A stretch of DNA of 16,685 nucleotides, from the UHGV virus genome UHGV-0121436; one strand, given 5' to 3'. Position 1 is the first letter of the stretch. Each line of letters opens with the position of its first letter. Origin of the DNA: a virus. Positions 870 through 10,858 of this stretch are shown in pieces. Made by a program: the position numbers and the translations under genes. Below the pieces are notes generated by a model. That model had not been told where the DNA came from. It saw only the letters and a list, made by a program, of their open reading frames with translations, and did not search any database.

Positions 870-1030
870 AAAAAATGCCCTCCAATAGAGAGCATTTTTA
901 CTGTATGTATAACCAGTGTCAATGTATGAAATCTTGCGACCATACATCTCACTGAAGCCATAATGAAGTTGGCTATTTTTTGCTATGTGAGTATGTGACT
1001 TTTGCGGTTAGCCTGCGGCTCATTGTTATA

Positions 1031-1261: not shown

Positions 1262-1831
1262 TTACCTAACGTACTTAATTGTTAAACTTATAATTTTTCC
1301 AATTATTTCAACATCTTCTATCTTGCACTCGAAGGATCTGTTTCCACCTTCAACGAAGATTCTTCCACCGGGTAAACGAGTAATGTCGCGGATTGTTATT
1401 TCGCCATCAATACTTATTACCCATTTACCATCACGTATATCATCAAATTCTTTATCACAAATAAATTCAGAATTGTTATCTGTGATGACAAAAGGTTTTT
1501 TAAACGTAGAGGGTAGAAATCCCTTATCAAAAATATAAAAACCGTCTTCACGCAAGGCACCATCAGATAATACATATTTAGCAACTTCCATCGTATTTGT
1601 ATTACCTGAAGTTTGCTTTGAACCATGTCCAGTTGTGAGCCAATTAAGCGAGGTGCCCGTTTCAAGGGCGCACTGGATTACCCATTCTGCTGGGAATGAG
1701 TCACGCATGTAGCGTGTGGCGAGTGTACTTTTAGAGATTCCTAAATGATCGCACAACGCCTGTCGAGTTTTGAATCCATAAGCTTCTACCATGCGCTCTA
1801 TAGCGCCTCGTCCGCCTTTCTCCAAATTCAT
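1262..1831 (-). CDS. cI: Phage immunity repressor (CI/C-like) with N-terminal HTH
   Basis: ORF on minus strand; ATG at 1831 preceded by GGAG at 5-nt spacing (the track's GTG at 1837 is an alternative start). N-terminal region ERMVEAYGFKTRQALCDHLGISKSTLATRYMRD is HTH-like and resembles the phage CI-repressor N-terminal domain. It is divergent from the early operon, as in P2/186. Confidence 0.8.
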   Translation of the reverse strand: MNLEKGGRGAIERMVEAYGFKTRQALCDHLGISKSTLATRYMRDSFPAEWVIQCALETGTSLNWLTTGHGSKQTSGNTNTMEVAKYVLSDGALREDGFYIFDKGFLPSTFKKPFVITDNNSEFICDKEFDDIRDGKWVISIDGEITIRDITRLPGGRIFVEGGNRSFECKIEDVEIIGKIISLTIKYVR

Positions 1832-1855
1832 GGTCACTCCAAGTGAACTTTTATC

Positions 1856-4614: not shown

Positions 4615-7025
4615 GTCATGCCGATATGAACAACTGCTGCGGCTTTAACGAGGCTGCCGCAGCATTCTCATGGAACAGCCCGAAAAAGGCCATTAACCCT
4701 TATCTGGACCCGGCGGAAGTTGCGCCGGTTTCTACGCTTTCAAACCTGATCACTCTGTACGCTGCCGATAACGAGCAGGAACAACTGCGCCGCGAGGCAC
4801 TGAGTGATCAGGTCTGGGAGCGTTATTTCTTTAATGAATCACGTGATCCTGTCCAGCGCGAAATGGAGCAGGATAAGCTCATTAGCCGGGCAAAGCTGGC
4901 GCATGAGCAGCAGCGTTTTAATTCAGACATGGTCATTCTGGCGGACGTCAACGCCCAGCCTTCCCATATCAGCAAGCCGCTGATGCAACGTATTGAATAC
5001 TTCAGCAGCCTGGGCAGGCCAAAGGCTTATTCCCGCTATTTACGTGAGACGATTAAGCCATGTCTGGAACGACTGGAGCATGTACGCGACAGTCAGCTAT
5101 CTGCATCTTTTCGCTTTATGGCAAGCCATGAAGGGCTGGACGGCCTGCTGATCCTGCCTGAAATGAGTCAGGATCAGGTGAAACGCCTGTCCACCCTGGT
5201 AGCTGCGCATATGAGTATGTGCCTTGATGCAGCTTGTGGTGATTTGTATGCCACCGATGACGTTAAGCCAGAAGAAATCCGCAAGACATGGGAAAAGGTG
5301 GCAGCGGAAACCCTGCGTCTGGATGTCATCCCACCTGCGTTTGAGCAACTCCGTCGGAAAAGAAACCGCCGTAAACCCGTGCCCTATGAACTCATTCCGG
5401 GTTCGCTGGCGCGTATGTTGTGCGCCGACTGGTGGTATCGGAAATTATGGAAGATGCGTTGCGAATGGCGGGAAGAGCAGTTGCGCGCTGTTTGCCTGGT
5501 CAGCAAAAAAGCATCTCCTTATGTCAGCTATGAAGCCGTGATGCATAAACGTGAGCAGCGCCGTAAGTCGCTGGAGTTTTTCCGTTCTCATGAACTGGTG
5601 AACGAAGACGGCGACACGCTGGACATGGAGGATGTGGTAAACGCCAGCAGCAGCAACCCTGCGCATCGCCGCAATGAGATGATGGCCTGTGTTAAAGGTC
5701 TGGAGCTTATCGCGGAAATGCGCGGTGACTGCGCCGTTTTCTACACTATCACCTGTCCGTCGCGTTTCCATTCCACGCTAAATAACGGCAGGCCAAACCC
5801 GACCTGGACAAACGCGACGGTAAGACAAAGCAGCGATTATCTGGTCGGCATGTTTGCTGCATTTCGTAAGGCGATGCACAAAGCCGGGTTGCGCTGGTAT
5901 GGCGTGCGGGTGGCTGAGCCGCATCATGATGGCACAGTTCACTGGCACCTGTTGTGTTTCATGCGCAAAAAAGACCGCCGTGCCATCACTGCATTACTGC
6001 GTAAGTTTGCCATCCGTGAAGACCGCGAGGAGCTGGGCAATAACACTGGGCCGCGCTTTAAGTCTGAGTTGATTAACCCGCGCAAAGGAACGCCGACAAG
6101 CTACATCGCGAAATATATCAGTAAGAACATTGACGGTCGTGGTCTGGCTGGCGAGATCAGCAAGGAAACGGGTAAATCTCTGCGTGATAACGCTGAATAC
6201 GTGAATGCCTGGGCGTCTCTGCATCGTGTTCAGCAATTCCGCTTCTTTGGTATTCCGGGGCGTCAGGCTTACCGTGAACTTCGCTTGCTGGCTGGTCAGG
6301 CGGCAAGGCAGCAGGGTGACAAAAAAGCAGGTGTGCCGGTACTGGATAACCCGCGTCTTGATGCCATTCTGGCTGCTGCTGATGCTGGTTGTTTTGCCAC
6401 CTACATCATGAAGCAGGGCGGCGTACTGGTTCCCCGTAAATATCACCTCATCAGAACCGCTTATGAAATCAACGAAGAGCCGACCGCCTATGGCGATCAC
6501 GGCATTCGTATTTATGGCATCTGGTCACCCATTGCAGAGGGCAAGATCTGCACTCATGCAGTGAAGTGGAAAATGGTTCGTAAGGCCGTTGACGTTCAGG
6601 AGGCGGCAGCCGACCAGGGCGCTTGCGCCCCTTGGACTCGTGGCAATAACTGTCCCCTTGCTGAAAATTTGTACCAACAAGGGAAAGACAAATCAGCTGA
6701 TGGGGATACCAGAACGGATATCACCCGCATGGATGACAAGGAATTGCACGATTACCTGCACAGTATGAACAAAAAAGAGCGCCGGGAACTGGCTGCAAGG
6801 TTACGCCTGGTGAAACCGAAACGGCGTAGAGACTACAAACAGCGAATTACAGATCATCAGCGACAGCAGCTCGTCTATGAACTGAAGTCCAGAGGATTTG
6901 ATGGCAGCGAGAAAGAGGTCGATTTACTCCTTCGCGGCGGCAGCATTCCGTCAGGAGCAGGCCTGCGTATTTTCTATCGGAACCAGCGTTTGCAGGAAGA
7001 TGATAAGTGGCGGAACCTGTATTAA
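4611..7025 (+). CDS. A: Replication initiation protein A (rolling-circle nicking endonuclease, P2 gpA-like), 804 aa
   Basis: Large ORF whose start overlaps the dam stop. Contains a histidine-rich [11 protein letters not shown] segment (HUH-type metal site) and [12 protein letters not shown] (candidate catalytic Tyr region). Size and position match P2/186 gene A. Confidence 0.9.
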
Positions 7026-7119
7026 TTACGCGGGTTAACAATTCGTGCTCTTAATAATACCAGGTATATCAGGCTGATGAACGTAAAAAAACGTTTTACA
7101 TCAGTAAGATTATTATATA

Positions 7120-7135
7120 CTGTAAATATAAACAG
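7120..7135. promoter_or_regulatory. LexA (SOS) operator, perfect CTGT-N8-ACAG
   Basis: CTGTAAATATAAACAG at 7120..7135 matches the LexA box consensus CTGT-(AT-rich N8)-ACAG. It lies in an AT-rich promoter-like stretch 44 nt upstream of the ORF starting at 7179. Confidence 0.6.
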
Positions 7136-7178
7136 TGGTTATGCGTACAGTATTGCTTGTGGTGTCATAGGAGGAAAG

Positions 7179-7367
7179 ATGCAGGACTATTTTTTGGAGT
7201 CTTTGAAGCTCCAGCGCATTGATTTTTTTCTTAAGCTTGTAGCGGCTAGTGAGTGTAGTGATGAAGAGAAGGGGCTGGCCCTGCAGTGGGTTTCTGAACT
7301 GACAGATGAACTCATGGCAAAAATCAGAACCCACGAATACAACCGCTCAATGGATGTCATCAGCTGA
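7179..7367 (+). CDS. Small protein (62 aa) in the LexA-controlled module; possible Tum-like antirepressor N-terminal part
   Basis: ATG 7179 preceded by AGGAGGAAAG. Acidic, helical-looking product MQDYFLESLKLQRIDFFLKLVAASECSDEEKGLALQWVSELTDELMAKIRTHEYNRSMDVIS. Sits directly upstream of the DinI-like ORF. Confidence 0.45.
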   Translation: MQDYFLESLKLQRIDFFLKLVAASECSDEEKGLALQWVSELTDELMAKIRTHEYNRSMDVIS

Positions 7368-7377
7368 GGTGACTTTT

Positions 7378-7611
7378 ATGCGCATTGAAATAATGATCGA
7401 TAAAGAGCAGAAGATTAGCCAGTCTACCCTGGACGCCCTTGAATCCGAGCTTTACCGCAATCTGCGCCCCCTGTATCCCAAAACGGTAATTCGCATTCGC
7501 AAAGGTAGCTCTAACGGTGTGGAACTGACCGGACTGCAACTGGACGAAGAAAGGAAGCAAGTGATGAAAATTATGCAGAAGGTGTGGGAAGACGACAGCT
7601 GGCTGCATTAA
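7378..7611 (+). CDS. DinI-family protein (77 aa); Tum/DinI-like SOS-regulated modulator
   Basis: MRIEIMIDKEQKISQSTLDALESELYRNLRPLYPKTVIRIRKGSSNGVELTGLQLDEERKQVMKIMQKVWEDDSWLH aligns by eye with E. coli DinI (MRIEVTI..., DAL..EL, W..D.W C-terminus). GAGG RBS 8 nt upstream. Confidence 0.7.
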   Translation: MRIEIMIDKEQKISQSTLDALESELYRNLRPLYPKTVIRIRKGSSNGVELTGLQLDEERKQVMKIMQKVWEDDSWLH

Positions 7612-7682
7612 GAAACGTTGCCCCCAAGAGGATTCATTCTGATGGGGGACTATTTTGGGCAACGAGTGAAACGAGGCGTTAG

Positions 7683-7720
7683 GTGGACGGCCATTTTGAT
7701 AAGTGATCGTCCGCTTTTTG
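7683..7720 (+). terminator. Possible intrinsic terminator after the DinI-like gene
   Basis: GTGGACG (7683..7689) pairs with CGTCCGC (7708..7714), one G-U pair, followed by TTTTT (7715..7719). The loop is large (18 nt), so this is weak. Confidence 0.3.
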
Positions 7721-7898
7721 TTCTGAGTTCAAGCGATGGATTTAACACACTGGTTGAAGCAGAAGTATCTAAGTTCAATTTATATTATTTGAAGGGCACT
7801 GGTCTGATGTAGTACGATTTTTGCCGGAGATGGCATGTTCTATATTGATCTCATCCATATAATGATTGGTATTATTAGCTTAGTTTAAAGAGGATTGA

Positions 7899-9476
7899 AT
7901 GGATATCAACTATGTTGTTTCAAAAATGGGGTTCGTAGATGATCTTATTAATGCAGGTTCATTTGATTCTGCCTATAAAAATGTAAAGGATATTCTTAAC
8001 GGTATCGATGAGATAAATACAATCAAAGAAAATAGAATAATTATATTATCTAATTTGGCCGGAAATCTTATTGATATCGGAAGTTTTAGTAATGTAAAAA
8101 ATATAGCGGAGGAAGGCTTAAATATCTTTATAAACAATAAAAATGAATTTCTGACTATAATGAAAGAATCCTTATATTACTATAACTTGGCAAATGGAAT
8201 GAGCGCAGTTCTTGATTTTAATCCTAATGACAATGCAGATATTGATAGTTTCATTAAGCTGAATGATGTAAAAAATAATTACTGGAAAGCGTTTAAACTT
8301 TCACAAGAAGATGGATGGGTGCCCCCTGATTTAATAGTTAATCTAGCTAATGTATTAAAAAAACAATATCGTATATCTGAATCAATGGATTATTATGAAC
8401 AAGCAATATCTATTGATAACTCAATTCCTCAGGCGTGGGTAAACAGATCTGAGGCATTAGAATTGCTTAATGAATTATCTACAACATATACATATAAAAT
8501 GATTAAAGAAGTTATTCGAGGTTATGAGTGTGCAATAAAGTCAGGGAAATGTTTTCCTTCATGGAAGGTTGCTCTTCAAAGAAAAATAAAGTACAACGAA
8601 AGTATATTGAGTGAATCATGTGTATATGGCATAGAGGATATAAGTACAGATGAAAGGCTCACGCAGGAGGAGTATGATACTTTATCAAACTACCAGAGGT
8701 TTTGTATAGATAATAATCTAATGTTGTCTGATCATTCGCTATATTGCAATTGTTATGCGTCATCTAAAGATAATATAACTATTGCTACCACCGAGGAAGG
8801 TGTGTTTGGTGATTTTATAGTGCCAATGGAAATGGTGTTAAATAGACTTAAAGCAGAGTATTCCTTAGCACGAAAAATGTTTTTTGAATATAAGGTTGAT
8901 AGTGAGTTTTTTGATGAGGATTCGGAGGTATGTTATTCTGAATTGTATAATGGAGAAATATTGTATGAAAATGTTGAGAAGTTAAGGGTTGCATTTAGAG
9001 CTTGCTTTGGTATCTTGGATAAAATAGCAGTTGCTCTGTGTCAATTATTTGATTTAAAACCAGATAGAGGACATATATACTTTCATAACTTCTGGCGGAT
9101 TAGTGATGAAAAAAGAAAGCTTAAAATAAACAAAATAAATAATAAAGGATTGCTGGGTTTGTTTAGTATTGCTATGGATTTGAATGATAAAAATGGTGAG
9201 CTTGCTTTTTTTAAAGAATGGAGGAATGATTTAGAACATAAACTGTTAGTTATTCACGAGAAAGACATGTTAGTTGATTTATATAATTCTTATGGATTTT
9301 TTGATGAGGTGAGATTTATTGAGAAAGAAAAGTTTGAGAAACAGCTCTTACAACTCATGAAAATTGTGAGATCAGCCGTTATTCTTTTTGTGTTTACCAT
9401 ACGTATAGAGGGGAAAAAAAGTATTCCTAAAGATATGTTGACCATTAAAAATACCATCGAGAGAAAAGTATTGTAG
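7899..9476 (+). CDS. AT-rich 525-aa protein with N-terminal TPR-like helical repeats and C-terminal HEPN-like region; candidate anti-phage / abortive-infection effector
   Basis: Uninterrupted ORF with AGAGGA RBS before ATG 7899. Visibly much lower GC than the flanking phage genes (by eye; not computed). TPR-like segment around YYEQAISIDNSIPQAWVNRSEALELLNEL. C-terminal R-x4-H (RNDLEH, nt 9222..9239) and R-x5-H (RGHIYFH) fit the HEPN R-x4-6-H signature. No Walker A motif seen. Located in the P2 tin/old-equivalent position. Confidence 0.75.
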   Translation: MDINYVVSKMGFVDDLINAGSFDSAYKNVKDILNGIDEINTIKENRIIILSNLAGNLIDIGSFSNVKNIAEEGLNIFINNKNEFLTIMKESLYYYNLANGMSAVLDFNPNDNADIDSFIKLNDVKNNYWKAFKLSQEDGWVPPDLIVNLANVLKKQYRISESMDYYEQAISIDNSIPQAWVNRSEALELLNELSTTYTYKMIKEVIRGYECAIKSGKCFPSWKVALQRKIKYNESILSESCVYGIEDISTDERLTQEEYDTLSNYQRFCIDNNLMLSDHSLYCNCYASSKDNITIATTEEGVFGDFIVPMEMVLNRLKAEYSLARKMFFEYKVDSEFFDEDSEVCYSELYNGEILYENVEKLRVAFRACFGILDKIAVALCQLFDLKPDRGHIYFHNFWRISDEKRKLKINKINNKGLLGLFSIAMDLNDKNGELAFFKEWRNDLEHKLLVIHEKDMLVDLYNSYGFFDEVRFIEKEKFEKQLLQLMKIVRSAVILFVFTIRIEGKKSIPKDMLTIKNTIERKVL

Positions 9477-9798
9477 TATATTTTCATCGAGCGATGAAAC
9501 GGTCTGTTTTTCTTTATAGTTTTGTCATAAAAAAGAGATTTCCTGCTTAAAATTTGGCTATTACAGAGCAACTATGTATGTTCCTCGCTCACAGTAGAGC
9601 TTCATCTTTGTAAGTCTGTATGTTTCGTTTTTCAAGTGGTCATTCAGATACGGACTTTCACTTCTCTTAGACAGTGCATGACTATGCTGCATGAAATCGC
9701 ATGATCGTTTAAGGATCGTTTTTGCTAAGGCTCGCCAGAACTAGCGGGCTTTTACGTAGAACATGCAGGTGCATGAAAACCACTACATAAAGCGGGCA

Positions 9799-9817
9799 GG
9801 CGTGGCGGGGATACGAG
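9799..9817. other. Probable cos site (cohesive-end sequence of P2/186-type phage)
   Basis: GGCGTGGCGGGGATACGAG: the first 12 nt match the 19-nt cohesive end I recall for 186 (GGCGTGGCGGGGAAAGCAT) and it is close to that of P2 (GGCGAGGCGGGGAAAGCAC). It lies upstream of the portal gene 3' end, as expected, in a GC-rich non-coding patch. Confidence 0.45.
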
Positions 9818-10030
9818 CGCGCGCAAAGGGGTTAAATGGCAAAAATCCGGCGCAATCTTCTGCTCGCTGTCGGCTTTAATTGGTGAGGGGGAGGGAATAG
9901 GCGCAAAAAAGAAATGCCCCGCAGAATGCGATCTATACACGCAGAATCGCGGATAACTCTTAAGCTATGATTGACGTACAATTTTACAGGAAGTATTAAA
10001 GTCTCATGTTCATTTTTTCAGGATGATGAC

Positions 10031-10807
10031 ATGTTAGCTGGTACGCGAAGTGCGACGAACGGAAAGGTTTTTGCTAAAGACTGCGAAAAAGAAGAAGGGC
10101 CATTTTTTTGCATTGGATGCAAAAAAGAATTGGTTTTAAAGAAGGGGCGAATTAAAGTTCATCACTTCGCCCATAAGCCCCCGTTTTCTTGCAACAGAGG
10201 TCATGGGGAGACTGAAAAACACCGAGAATGCAAAGAATCTATGTATAACTTGTTGCTTTCAATGCCGAATGTTAGAGATGTTGACATAGAGCATGATCTT
10301 GGTAGTGCTGTAGCTGATGTGTATGCTGTGATAAACAATGTTCCAGTCGCTATTGAAGTACAACGCAGCATTCTTTCCGTAAATGAAATAACAAGACGCA
10401 CCAAAGAATATCATCGTTTAGGTGTACATGTGCTTTGGCTTTCACTGTTCAGCACGCGACTTGTAGAAGATCGCTTTAGCCCATCAGCGTGGGAAAAGTG
10501 GTGTCATGCTACCTATTATGGCAGGGTATATTATTGGCTTTCTGGATTGGATGTGATCCCATATCATTTTTCTGACTATAAATTATATGTTGAAGAAAGT
10601 ACATGGTACGAGTCGGGTGGAAATGAGAGAAGCGCAGGTGGATACTATAAATTTTCAAAACGTTATAAAACGCCACTCGCTGGGCAAAGAGTAAATATAG
10701 CGGAAGACTTTTCGCCTAAAAGAAAAGCAGCATGGAATAGTAAGACTATTTATATACCAGAATGTAGTATTTATTTGGATGGACAGTCAGCGTGGTGGAG
10801 TAAATAA
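10031..10807 (+). CDS. CoiA-like protein (putative PD-(D/E)xK-type nuclease with N-terminal Cys/His cluster), 258 aa
   Basis: ATG 10031 (the track's TTG at 9971 is less likely). Translation has CIGCKKELVLKKGRIKVHHFAHKPPFSC, GETEKHRECKE, ADVYAVINNVPVAIEVQRSILSVNEITRRTKEYHRLGVHVLWL. This order of motifs (C-x2-C...HFAH...GE-x3-H...ADV...AIE-x-Q-x-S...LG-x-VLW) is what I recall for the competence protein CoiA family. Moderately AT-rich; lies between cos and the portal gene. Confidence 0.7.
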   Translation: MLAGTRSATNGKVFAKDCEKEEGPFFCIGCKKELVLKKGRIKVHHFAHKPPFSCNRGHGETEKHRECKESMYNLLLSMPNVRDVDIEHDLGSAVADVYAVINNVPVAIEVQRSILSVNEITRRTKEYHRLGVHVLWLSLFSTRLVEDRFSPSAWEKWCHATYYGRVYYWLSGLDVIPYHFSDYKLYVEESTWYESGGNERSAGGYYKFSKRYKTPLAGQRVNIAEDFSPKRKAAWNSKTIYIPECSIYLDGQSAWWSK

Positions 10808-10814
10808 GAATTGT

Positions 10815-10858
10815 TAATATAAATTCAGCAGCAATTGCTGCTGCATTTATTATATTAA
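10815..10858. terminator. Bidirectional intrinsic terminator between the convergent CoiA-like and portal genes
   Basis: Perfect 18-nt palindrome CAGCAGCAATTGCTGCTG (10826..10843) flanked by A/T-rich runs on both sides. It sits exactly between the stop of the plus-strand ORF (10807) and the stop of the minus-strand portal gene (10855). Confidence 0.55.

Follow-up and report, generated by a model that had tools for sequence, protein, structure and literature searches.

A probable LexA-controlled SOS induction operon, with a Tum-like antirepressor gene and a separate DinI-like gene, in a Fels-2/DuoHS-type prophage of the P2 family

Two small genes lying directly 3' of the replication gene A of a P2-family prophage, together with the LexA operator and promoter in front of them, very probably form the SOS induction operon of a 186-like phage of the Fels-2/DuoHS type, in which the antirepressor and a DinI protein are encoded separately (Table 1). 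The window, that is, the whole stretch of 16,685 nucleotides analysed here (virus genome UHGV-0121436), comprises the early region and the head-gene region of the prophage. The arrangement itself is already known: it has been published for Fels-2 and PSP3, and it was tested genetically in E. coli HS. The requirement of the 62-aa gene and of a cleavable LexA for mitomycin C induction is likewise published, with the genetics coming from the orthologous prophage of E. coli HS and not from the prophage studied here.

Table 1. Features of the tum-dinI module and of associated genes (positions in the window)
Feature	Position	Strand	Basis and remarks
cI, immunity repressor of 186 type	1262..1837	-	PF07022 (Phage_CI_repr) and PF16452 (Phage_CI_C)
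Gene A (replication)	ends at 7025		Pfam match, PF05840
-35 hexamer TTTACA	7095..7100	+	sequence reading; putative, by analogy with 186 p95
LexA operator, 20-mer TACTGTAAATATAAACAGTG	7118..7137	+	consensus match; predicted binding
-10 hexamer TACTGT, first six bases of the operator	7118..7123	+	putative
Shine-Dalgarno sequence of ORF1, GGAGGA	7170..7175	+	sequence reading
ORF1, tum (tumA-type), 62 aa	7179..7367	+	ATG 7179, TGA 7365-7367; 189-nt ORF in the HS orthologue
Shine-Dalgarno sequence of ORF2, GAGGTGA	7366..7372	+	sequence reading; overlaps the ORF1 stop codon
ORF2, dinI-like (tumB-type), 77 aa	7378..7611	+	ATG 7378, TAA 7609-7611; PF06183
First hairpin after ORF2, CCCCC/GGGGG core followed by ACUAUUUUGGG	7616..7664	+	RNA fold and position
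Second hairpin, G+C-rich stem followed by UUUUUGUU (U-tract)	7681..7722	+	RNA fold

The left edge of the window contains the 5' part of int, and the module is followed by a cargo island (HEPN/CoiA-like) and then by the portal, terminase and capsid genes. The phage encodes CII (PF06892 match) and a 186-type CI, the presumed target of the Tum-like protein, in which the Peptidase_S24 match falls below threshold. In near-identical prophages, the interval from cII to A contains no annotated P2 B gene. The preliminary description had reported a perfect LexA operator, CTGTAAATATAAACAG, at 7120-7135, a 62-aa ORF and, after a 10-nt gap, a 77-aa ORF in another frame, and each of these is found at those positions. 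Its proposal of a LexA-controlled Tum/DinI module in a 186-type SOS-inducible phage is borne out by the location after gene A, the presence of CII and of a 186-type CI, and the lack of an annotated B gene. Large parts of the window are contained in approximately 1,350 complete E. coli genomes, and the module itself is present in 1,125 of 5,426 such genomes (about one in five), in all of which the two genes are annotated as 'hypothetical protein' and 'DinI-like family protein', respectively.

The operator TACTGTAAATATAAACAGTG agrees with the LexA consensus TACTGTATATATATACAGTA at 17 of 20 positions, and LexA binding to it is predicted. No other site in the window comes within three mismatches of the consensus, and no such site appeared in any of 200 shuffled sequences; the simpler pattern CTGT-N8-ACAG occurs once in the 16.7 kb, with 0.20 occurrences expected. 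The record of phage 186 describes the promoter p95 as TTCACA-18 nt-TACTGT, with the LexA site beginning at the -10 hexamer. Here, TTTACA and TACTGT are separated by 17 nt, and related loci carry a -35 hexamer of the TTTCA(G/C) type at an equal distance. At the sequence level, the operator thus overlaps the -10 hexamer of the antirepressor-gene promoter as it does at the annotated 186 p95, and by this analogy TTTACA-17 nt-TACTGT is probably a LexA-controlled promoter equivalent to p95. This promoter escaped a generic promoter scan on account of its weak -10 hexamer; its transcription start is predicted near 7130.

Over 7040-7700, the window shares 97.7% identity with Salmonella phage Fels-2 and with numerous Peduoviridae of Klebsiella and Escherichia, and the similarity to Fels-2 stops exactly at the stop codon of ORF2. 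Both ORFs are annotated in the Fels-2 record, which refers to 'TumB [PsP3]'. As described in the relevant passage of Lemire et al., tum is split in two in Fels-2 and PSP3, with the upstream gene encoding the antirepressor; for PSP3, the assignment is given there second-hand, as a personal communication, beside Bunny et al. 2002. The most direct evidence comes from the Phollow study (PMC12055606, PMC11195241), which reports that deletion of tum (ECHS_RS04495) in the DuoHS prophage abolishes mitomycin C lysis of E. coli HS, that lexA(Ind-) likewise abolishes this lysis, and that both mutants are without viral foci; no complementation of the tum deletion was found in the available text of that study. 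In the HS genome annotation, ECHS_RS04495 is the 62-aa ORF, followed 10 nt further on by the DinI ORF. The deletion primers join the ATG of ECHS_RS04495 to its TGA, leaving the DinI ORF untouched, and are identical to the window sequence at 7159-7181 and 7365-7387. ORF1 of the window is identical to ECHS_RS04495 at 61 of 62 residues, and so it is to the Fels-2 protein; ORF2 is identical to ECHS_RS04500 throughout (77/77). The LexA box of the HS prophage is the same as that of the window, and the CI proteins of the window and DuoHS are 95% identical overall and 100% identical in the N-terminal domain.

Little could be learned about ORF1 from standard searches. It has no match in Pfam, NCBIfam or PADLOC, a profile search of PDB sequences returned nothing, and phrog_698, to which it belongs, is listed with unknown function. 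The similarity to Tum expected from the preliminary description failed to appear in pairwise BLASTP, where ORF1 showed none to 186 Tum or to PSP3 TumA, and emerged from profile comparison. For the latter, the families of ORF1, of the N-terminal part of 186 Tum and of TumA were assembled from database searches and an exhaustive search of representative sequences, and were then compared profile to profile. The hhalign comparison of the ORF1 family with the 186 Tum N-terminal family gave a probability of 95.6% and an E-value of 1.3e-8, with columns 3-44 in register and 19% identity across 42 columns; the score was 42.8, compared to 14.1 at most in 40 column-shuffled controls. The two families share the pattern E..(L/M).(Q/E)R(I/V)(D/E)...(K/R)L......C..(E/D)(K/R)..A(L/I).(W/L)(I/V).E(L/I). 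The Tum N-terminal family in turn matches the TumA family (probability 89%, E-value 2e-6), and the match between the ORF1 and TumA families is weak and in the same register (E-value 0.011, probability 3.9%). Independently of hhalign, cross-hits join phrog_698, phrog_8554 and phrog_1993: the N-terminal part of 186 Tum matches phrog_698 (E-value 5.9e-6), this part and ORF1 both match phrog_8554, and ORF1 matches phrog_1993, the TumA family (E-value 0.0022). These profile matches make ORF1 a homologue of the antirepressor region at the N-terminus of 186 Tum; by sequence it is clearly of the Fels-2 type, whose family is sister to that of TumA.

The AlphaFold2 model of ORF1 is a two-helix hairpin (helices 2-23 and 28-61; pLDDT 87.6). 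A Foldseek search of BFVD with this model produced no match with an E-value below 0.4; no informative neighbour was expected, because the model is a two-helix hairpin. The exhaustive search of 1.8 billion representatives yielded 66 relatives of ORF1, all short (~60-70 aa), and no fused Tum-like member of the family was found among these representatives. A longer reading of ORF1, 96 aa from the ATG at 7077, was rejected: it would run across the promoter and operator, and it is also contradicted by the conserved N-terminus of the family, which coincides with M1 of the 62-aa form, and by the Shine-Dalgarno sequence that precedes 7179.

The assignment of the downstream ORF to the DinI family, made in the preliminary description, was confirmed. 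ORF2 matches PF06183 over all 63 profile positions (1-63) with an E-value of 6.6e-23 and 81.3 bits (cutoff 24.2), belongs to phrog_189, 'RecA filament binding protein DinI', and gives a full-length alignment with E. coli DinI (PDB 1GHH; E-value 2.7e-6) that starts at residue 1; its N-terminus, MRIE, is the native N-terminus of DinI. Against NF007893, the NCBIfam equivalog for host DinI, it scores 42.7 bits, below the cutoff of 111, and by this measure ORF2 is a prophage paralogue rather than an orthologue of host DinI. In the comparisons with 186 Tum and DinI proposed in the same description, ORF2 proved to be 41% identical to residues 71-145 of 186 Tum in addition to aligning with 1GHH. Residue 1 of ORF2 aligns with residue 71 of Tum, which is encoded by an annotated internal GTG start; the two cistrons therefore correspond to the pair of functional products made from 186 tum. 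The spacer between the ORFs occupies 7368-7377, and ORF2 is in the +1 frame relative to ORF1. Of the two hairpins 3' of ORF2, neither of which was reported by a simple terminator scan, the first is possibly a partial terminator and the positional equivalent of 186 t95a, and the second appears terminator-like in the predicted fold.

To assess conservation, we scanned one genome per species with a query derived from a 9-sequence alignment subset, which yielded 28 loci with ORF1 homologues (40-100% identity) across Enterobacterales. A homologue of gene A immediately precedes the ORF1 homologue in nearly all of them. A LexA box, counted as a match to at least 15 of 20 consensus positions in the 200 nt preceding the ORF1 homologue, was detected in 24 of the 27 loci with sufficient upstream sequence, 18-49 nt before the start codon, and is kept even where the flanks diverge; in the remaining three, the box is mutated or the upstream region has been replaced, and the ORF of one of these loci is also broken. 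The Shine-Dalgarno sequence, AGGAGG or GGGAGG, is kept in all related loci, 5-8 nt before the start codon. By contrast, a DinI-family ORF is present within 3 kb in only 7 of the 28 loci and absent from 21; the LexA box and the small ORF are therefore the conserved core, and DinI an optional passenger. On this distribution, DinI is accessory to the antirepressor. Where a DinI ORF follows, the spacers are 3, 9, 10 or 15 nt (9-15 nt in the related loci and 3 nt in PSP3), and the frame relation varies: ORF2 is at +1 here, whereas in PSP3 and at loci L011 and L032 a stop codon separates two ORFs that share one frame. According to the preliminary description, the sequence alone could not decide between a split or frameshifted Tum and an antirepressor with a separate DinI-like modulator. 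This was too cautious: the conserved layout, the separate Shine-Dalgarno sequences, the variable frame and the frequent absence of DinI indicate an antirepressor plus a separate DinI, not a frameshifted Tum.

Several other explanations of the locus were considered. The two ORFs could be the frameshifted or nonsense remnant of a fused 186-type tum in a prophage that is losing its inducibility, as might be suggested by the single 146-aa fusion of both parts in 186 and by the frame of ORF2, which differs from that of ORF1 and stays open upstream to 7306. Such decay is scarcely credible, however, given that the two-ORF layout, with the ATG and the Shine-Dalgarno sequence proper to ORF2, persists in some 1,100 E. 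coli genomes and recurs in Fels-2, in many Klebsiella phages and in diverged loci, that ORF2 begins at the native DinI N-terminus, and that the tail of ORF1 has no similarity to the 186 linker. The uniformly short ORF1 family, devoid of fusions, speaks against it as well, and it is contradicted by the inducible E. coli HS prophage of equal layout. Programmed recoding, by a +1 frameshift or stop read-through, would make an ORF1-ORF2 fusion the real antirepressor. The spacer is short (10 nt), and the frame of ORF2 reaches back into the end of ORF1, but the frame relation and spacer length vary among relatives, leaving no conserved recoding mechanism, no slippery or prfB-like motif is found at 7340-7378, and most relatives are missing the DinI ORF altogether; we consider recoding extremely improbable.

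A different objection is that ORF1 is not an antirepressor, and that the module serves only to modulate the SOS response of the host by means of the DinI-like protein, while induction proceeds by another route. ORF1 indeed lacks a curated family and is annotated as a hypothetical protein everywhere, and the binding of CI by members of its family is extrapolated from Tum. Nevertheless, deletion of the ORF1 orthologue alone abolishes mitomycin C induction in E. coli HS, ORF1 is a homologue of the N-terminal part of Tum, the LexA box and the ORF1 homologue occur together in the 21 of 28 loci that are devoid of DinI, and CI is of the 186 type, with its Peptidase_S24 match below threshold, so that we judge this explanation very unlikely. 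Finally, the palindrome might be a chance AT-rich sequence without a regulatory role: the region is AT-rich, and at least one CTGT-N8-ACAG was found in 38 of 200 whole-window shuffles. None of the shuffles, though, approached the consensus as closely as the actual 20-mer; the box lies on the -10 hexamer as in 186 p95 and persists where the flanks diverge, and lexA(Ind-) stops the induction of the HS prophage, which has the identical box. A fortuitous origin can hardly be entertained.

Under the preferred reading, an SOS induction operon with an antirepressor and a separate DinI, the switch would work as follows. In the lysogen, LexA bound at 7118-7137 would cover the -10 hexamer of a sigma-70 promoter and keep the operon off; upon DNA damage, active RecA would promote the self-cleavage of LexA, and the operon would be transcribed. 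The 62-aa helical-hairpin protein, which has its homologues in PSP3 TumA and the N-terminal part of 186 Tum, would then act as an antirepressor that binds the non-cleavable 186-type CI, the lytic promoter would no longer be held, and lytic growth would follow. The DinI-family protein, translated from its own ribosome-binding site, would have an accessory role, modulating the SOS signal by its action on RecA filaments, and would be the counterpart of the DinI-only product made from the internal GTG in 186 tum. The literature presents 186 Tum as an anti-CI factor under LexA control that works by sequestering CI, and CI binding is established for this protein only (Shearwin et al. 1998, as related in papers citing it); for the phage analysed here, we infer both the direct contact between the Tum-like protein and CI and the role of the DinI-like protein. 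In Gifsy prophages, deletion of the dinI homologue had no measurable effect on induction (Lemire et al. 2011).

The CI repertoire of the relatives was also compared. Among phages with 98-100% identical Tum-like proteins, the CI repressors show pairwise identities of only 36-59%, with a mean of 73% in the N-terminal DNA-binding domain and 35% in the C-terminal domain. In 186, which has a different Tum N-terminal family, the N-terminal domain of CI is approximately 42% identical to those of these repressors. The pattern, drawn from few lineages, fits a Tum that would target the N-terminal domain of CI and work across many CI variants.

A second LexA-type box occupies 899-918 and lies 31 nt before the start codon of int. 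It fills the 17-nt spacer of TTGACA...AAAAAT (922-894, - strand), a predicted promoter, presumably occluded by LexA, that the scan reported unaided with 10 of 12 matches. The CTG-N10-CAG core of this box is kept in E. coli HS, 4LV2017, 813R9 and KP12, and also in ESSI2_ev129 despite flanks that are only ~69% identical. Fels-2 is without the intergenic region that carries the second box, and a literature search found no published LexA box at int of P2-like phages. One might tentatively envisage a two-point SOS circuit in which LexA represses both the tum and the int promoters, and a Fels-2-type Tum hits the N-terminal domain of CI and so inactivates repressors with C-terminal domains ~35% identical, but we regard this as rather doubtful. 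If it were true, cross-induction between co-resident Fels-2-like prophages would be expected.

The module decides whether a P2-family prophage wakes on DNA damage, for example, that caused by SOS-triggering antibiotics. The 62-aa gene of this induction switch is nevertheless a 'hypothetical protein' in RefSeq and of 'unknown function' in PHROGs, and neither Pfam nor NCBIfam provides a model for it. Recognising it would make the SOS inducibility of P2-like prophages predictable from sequence.

Among the known systems, p95-tum of phage 186 resembles the present module in the LexA operator placed on the -10 hexamer TACTGT, the promoter straight after gene A, the antirepressor domain (by profile homology), the DinI part with its 41% identity, the existence of a DinI-only product, the 186-type CI and a hairpin 3' of the operon. 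The 186 record gives one tum with four in-frame starts, the last of which, the GTG, leads to the DinI-only product that 'modulates SOS induction'; AAGGAGG precedes this internal GTG, just as ORF2 here has its own Shine-Dalgarno sequence. The two systems differ in that both parts are fused in the 146 aa of 186 Tum, whereas here two cistrons in different frames are separated by a stop codon and 10 nt. The N-terminal parts are ~19-23% identical, the LexA box of the window lies ~26 nt further upstream in the alignment, with a half-site left at the 186 position, and orf97 of 186 is replaced by other cargo.

PSP3 has, as here, a separate small antirepressor gene and then a 77-aa DinI homologue after gene A; its record describes tumA as 'similar to 5' end 186 tum; UV induction of prophage' and tumB as 'similar to dinI and 3' end of 186 tum'. 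TumA, however, belongs to a different sequence family (phrog_1993) weakly linked to ORF1, the two PSP3 genes are in the same frame with a 3-nt spacer, and the PSP3 cI appears much longer (annotated coordinates, 861 nt). The closest counterparts are STM2728 and STM2726.1 of Fels-2 and ECHS_RS04495 and ECHS_RS04500 of DuoHS, which are essentially the same module, with DNA ~98% identical and identical LexA box, Shine-Dalgarno sequences and 10-nt spacer. In contrast, the Fels-2 CI is ~40% identical overall and 70% identical in the N-terminal domain, and the cargo 3' of the DinI ORF is different in each phage. The dinI-gfoA/gftA operons of Gifsy prophages (Lemire et al. 2011) also combine a LexA-repressed small antirepressor gene with a DinI homologue, and the repressor is inactivated by binding rather than cleavage; unlike the operon described here, they have dinI in the first position and belong to lambdoid phages with an unrelated repressor family. 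With E. coli DinI (1GHH), ORF2 shares PF06183 and the alignment over its full length, and a corresponding effect on RecA is predicted.

In addition to the box preceding the tum-dinI module, the window contains a second LexA-type box, upstream of int (see the table). A strong promoter-like site directed into int has a 17-nt spacer, which this box fills; the box is kept in E. coli HS, ECONIH5, Klebsiella phages 4LV2017 and KP12, and Escherichia phage 813R9, as well as in ESSI2_ev129 (TACTGTTTATTTATACAGTG), despite flanks that are only ~69% identical. The location of the box within the promoter spacer, together with its conservation, suggests that the int promoter of DuoHS-type prophages (those resembling the E. 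coli HS prophage) is LexA-repressed. In Fels-2, cI abuts int, and the region with the int-side box is absent. A literature search for a LexA box at int of P2-like phages found no paper.

Features around int, the tum promoter and the cargo island
Feature	Position	Strand	Details
Second LexA-type box	899-918	- (promoter context)	TACTGTATGTATAACCAGTG
Promoter-like site, directed into int	894-922	-	TTGACA-17 nt-AAAAAT; strong
int start codon	868-866	-
Hairpin 1, gene A end to tum promoter	7029-7047		RNA fold
Hairpin 2, same interval	7073-7105		RNA fold; contains -35 hexamer
LexA half-site	7146-7152		TACAGTA; 20-mer CAGTGGTTATGCGTACAGTA at 7133-7152
Cargo island	7612-10850		between DinI ORF and portal gene
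TPR + LA2681-type HEPN protein	7899-9476		525 aa; PF18733, E 1.8e-38
CoiA-like nuclease-domain protein	9971-10807		278 aa

The main LexA box is adjoined on its downstream side by a half-site that is conserved in the Fels-2/DuoHS subgroup; 186 and PSP3 have a full LexA box at the same alignment position. The half-site may be what is left of an ancestral box, or it may serve as a weak second site.

A LexA box and a Tum-like ORF, with no DinI-family ORF within 3 kb, were detected in 21 of the 28 related loci (DinI-less loci are noted under L012-L035, genome contigs), and the 186-type Tum N-terminal part is also represented by stand-alone 'Tum protein' database entries of 63-91 aa. Therefore, fused, split and DinI-less forms all exist.

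Near-identical Tum-like proteins (98-100%) are found alongside CI repressors that are only 36-59% identical overall (window cI, 1262-1837 on the - strand, compared with related loci L005, L006, L007 and L036-L041). Among these same-Tum phages, mean CI identity is 73% in the N-terminal domain vs 35% in the C-terminal domain, with a conserved patch, SKST(L/M)A.RY.RD.FPA(E/D)W(V/I)IQC.LETG.SL.WL. A near-constant Tum paired with a CI conserved mainly in its N-terminal domain hints that this domain is the contact point of Tum, and Tum may be active across CI variants. The Tum N-terminal family of 186 differs from that of the window's Tum-like protein, and the 186 CI N-terminal domain is ~42% identical to those of phages with the Fels-2/DuoHS-type Tum.

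The content of the cargo island is not the same in Fels-2, E. coli HS and ECONIH5, although its flanks are conserved; the island probably represents a variable hotspot for accessory or defence genes. PADLOC and PHROG yielded no significant family for the HEPN protein or the CoiA-like protein. Read-through from the SOS promoter might reach the island. Upstream of this promoter, the two predicted hairpins (fold z-score -2.6) may shield tum from early-operon transcription; they can be likened to the palindromes that precede LexA boxes in Gifsy prophages, where they were noted as insulation.
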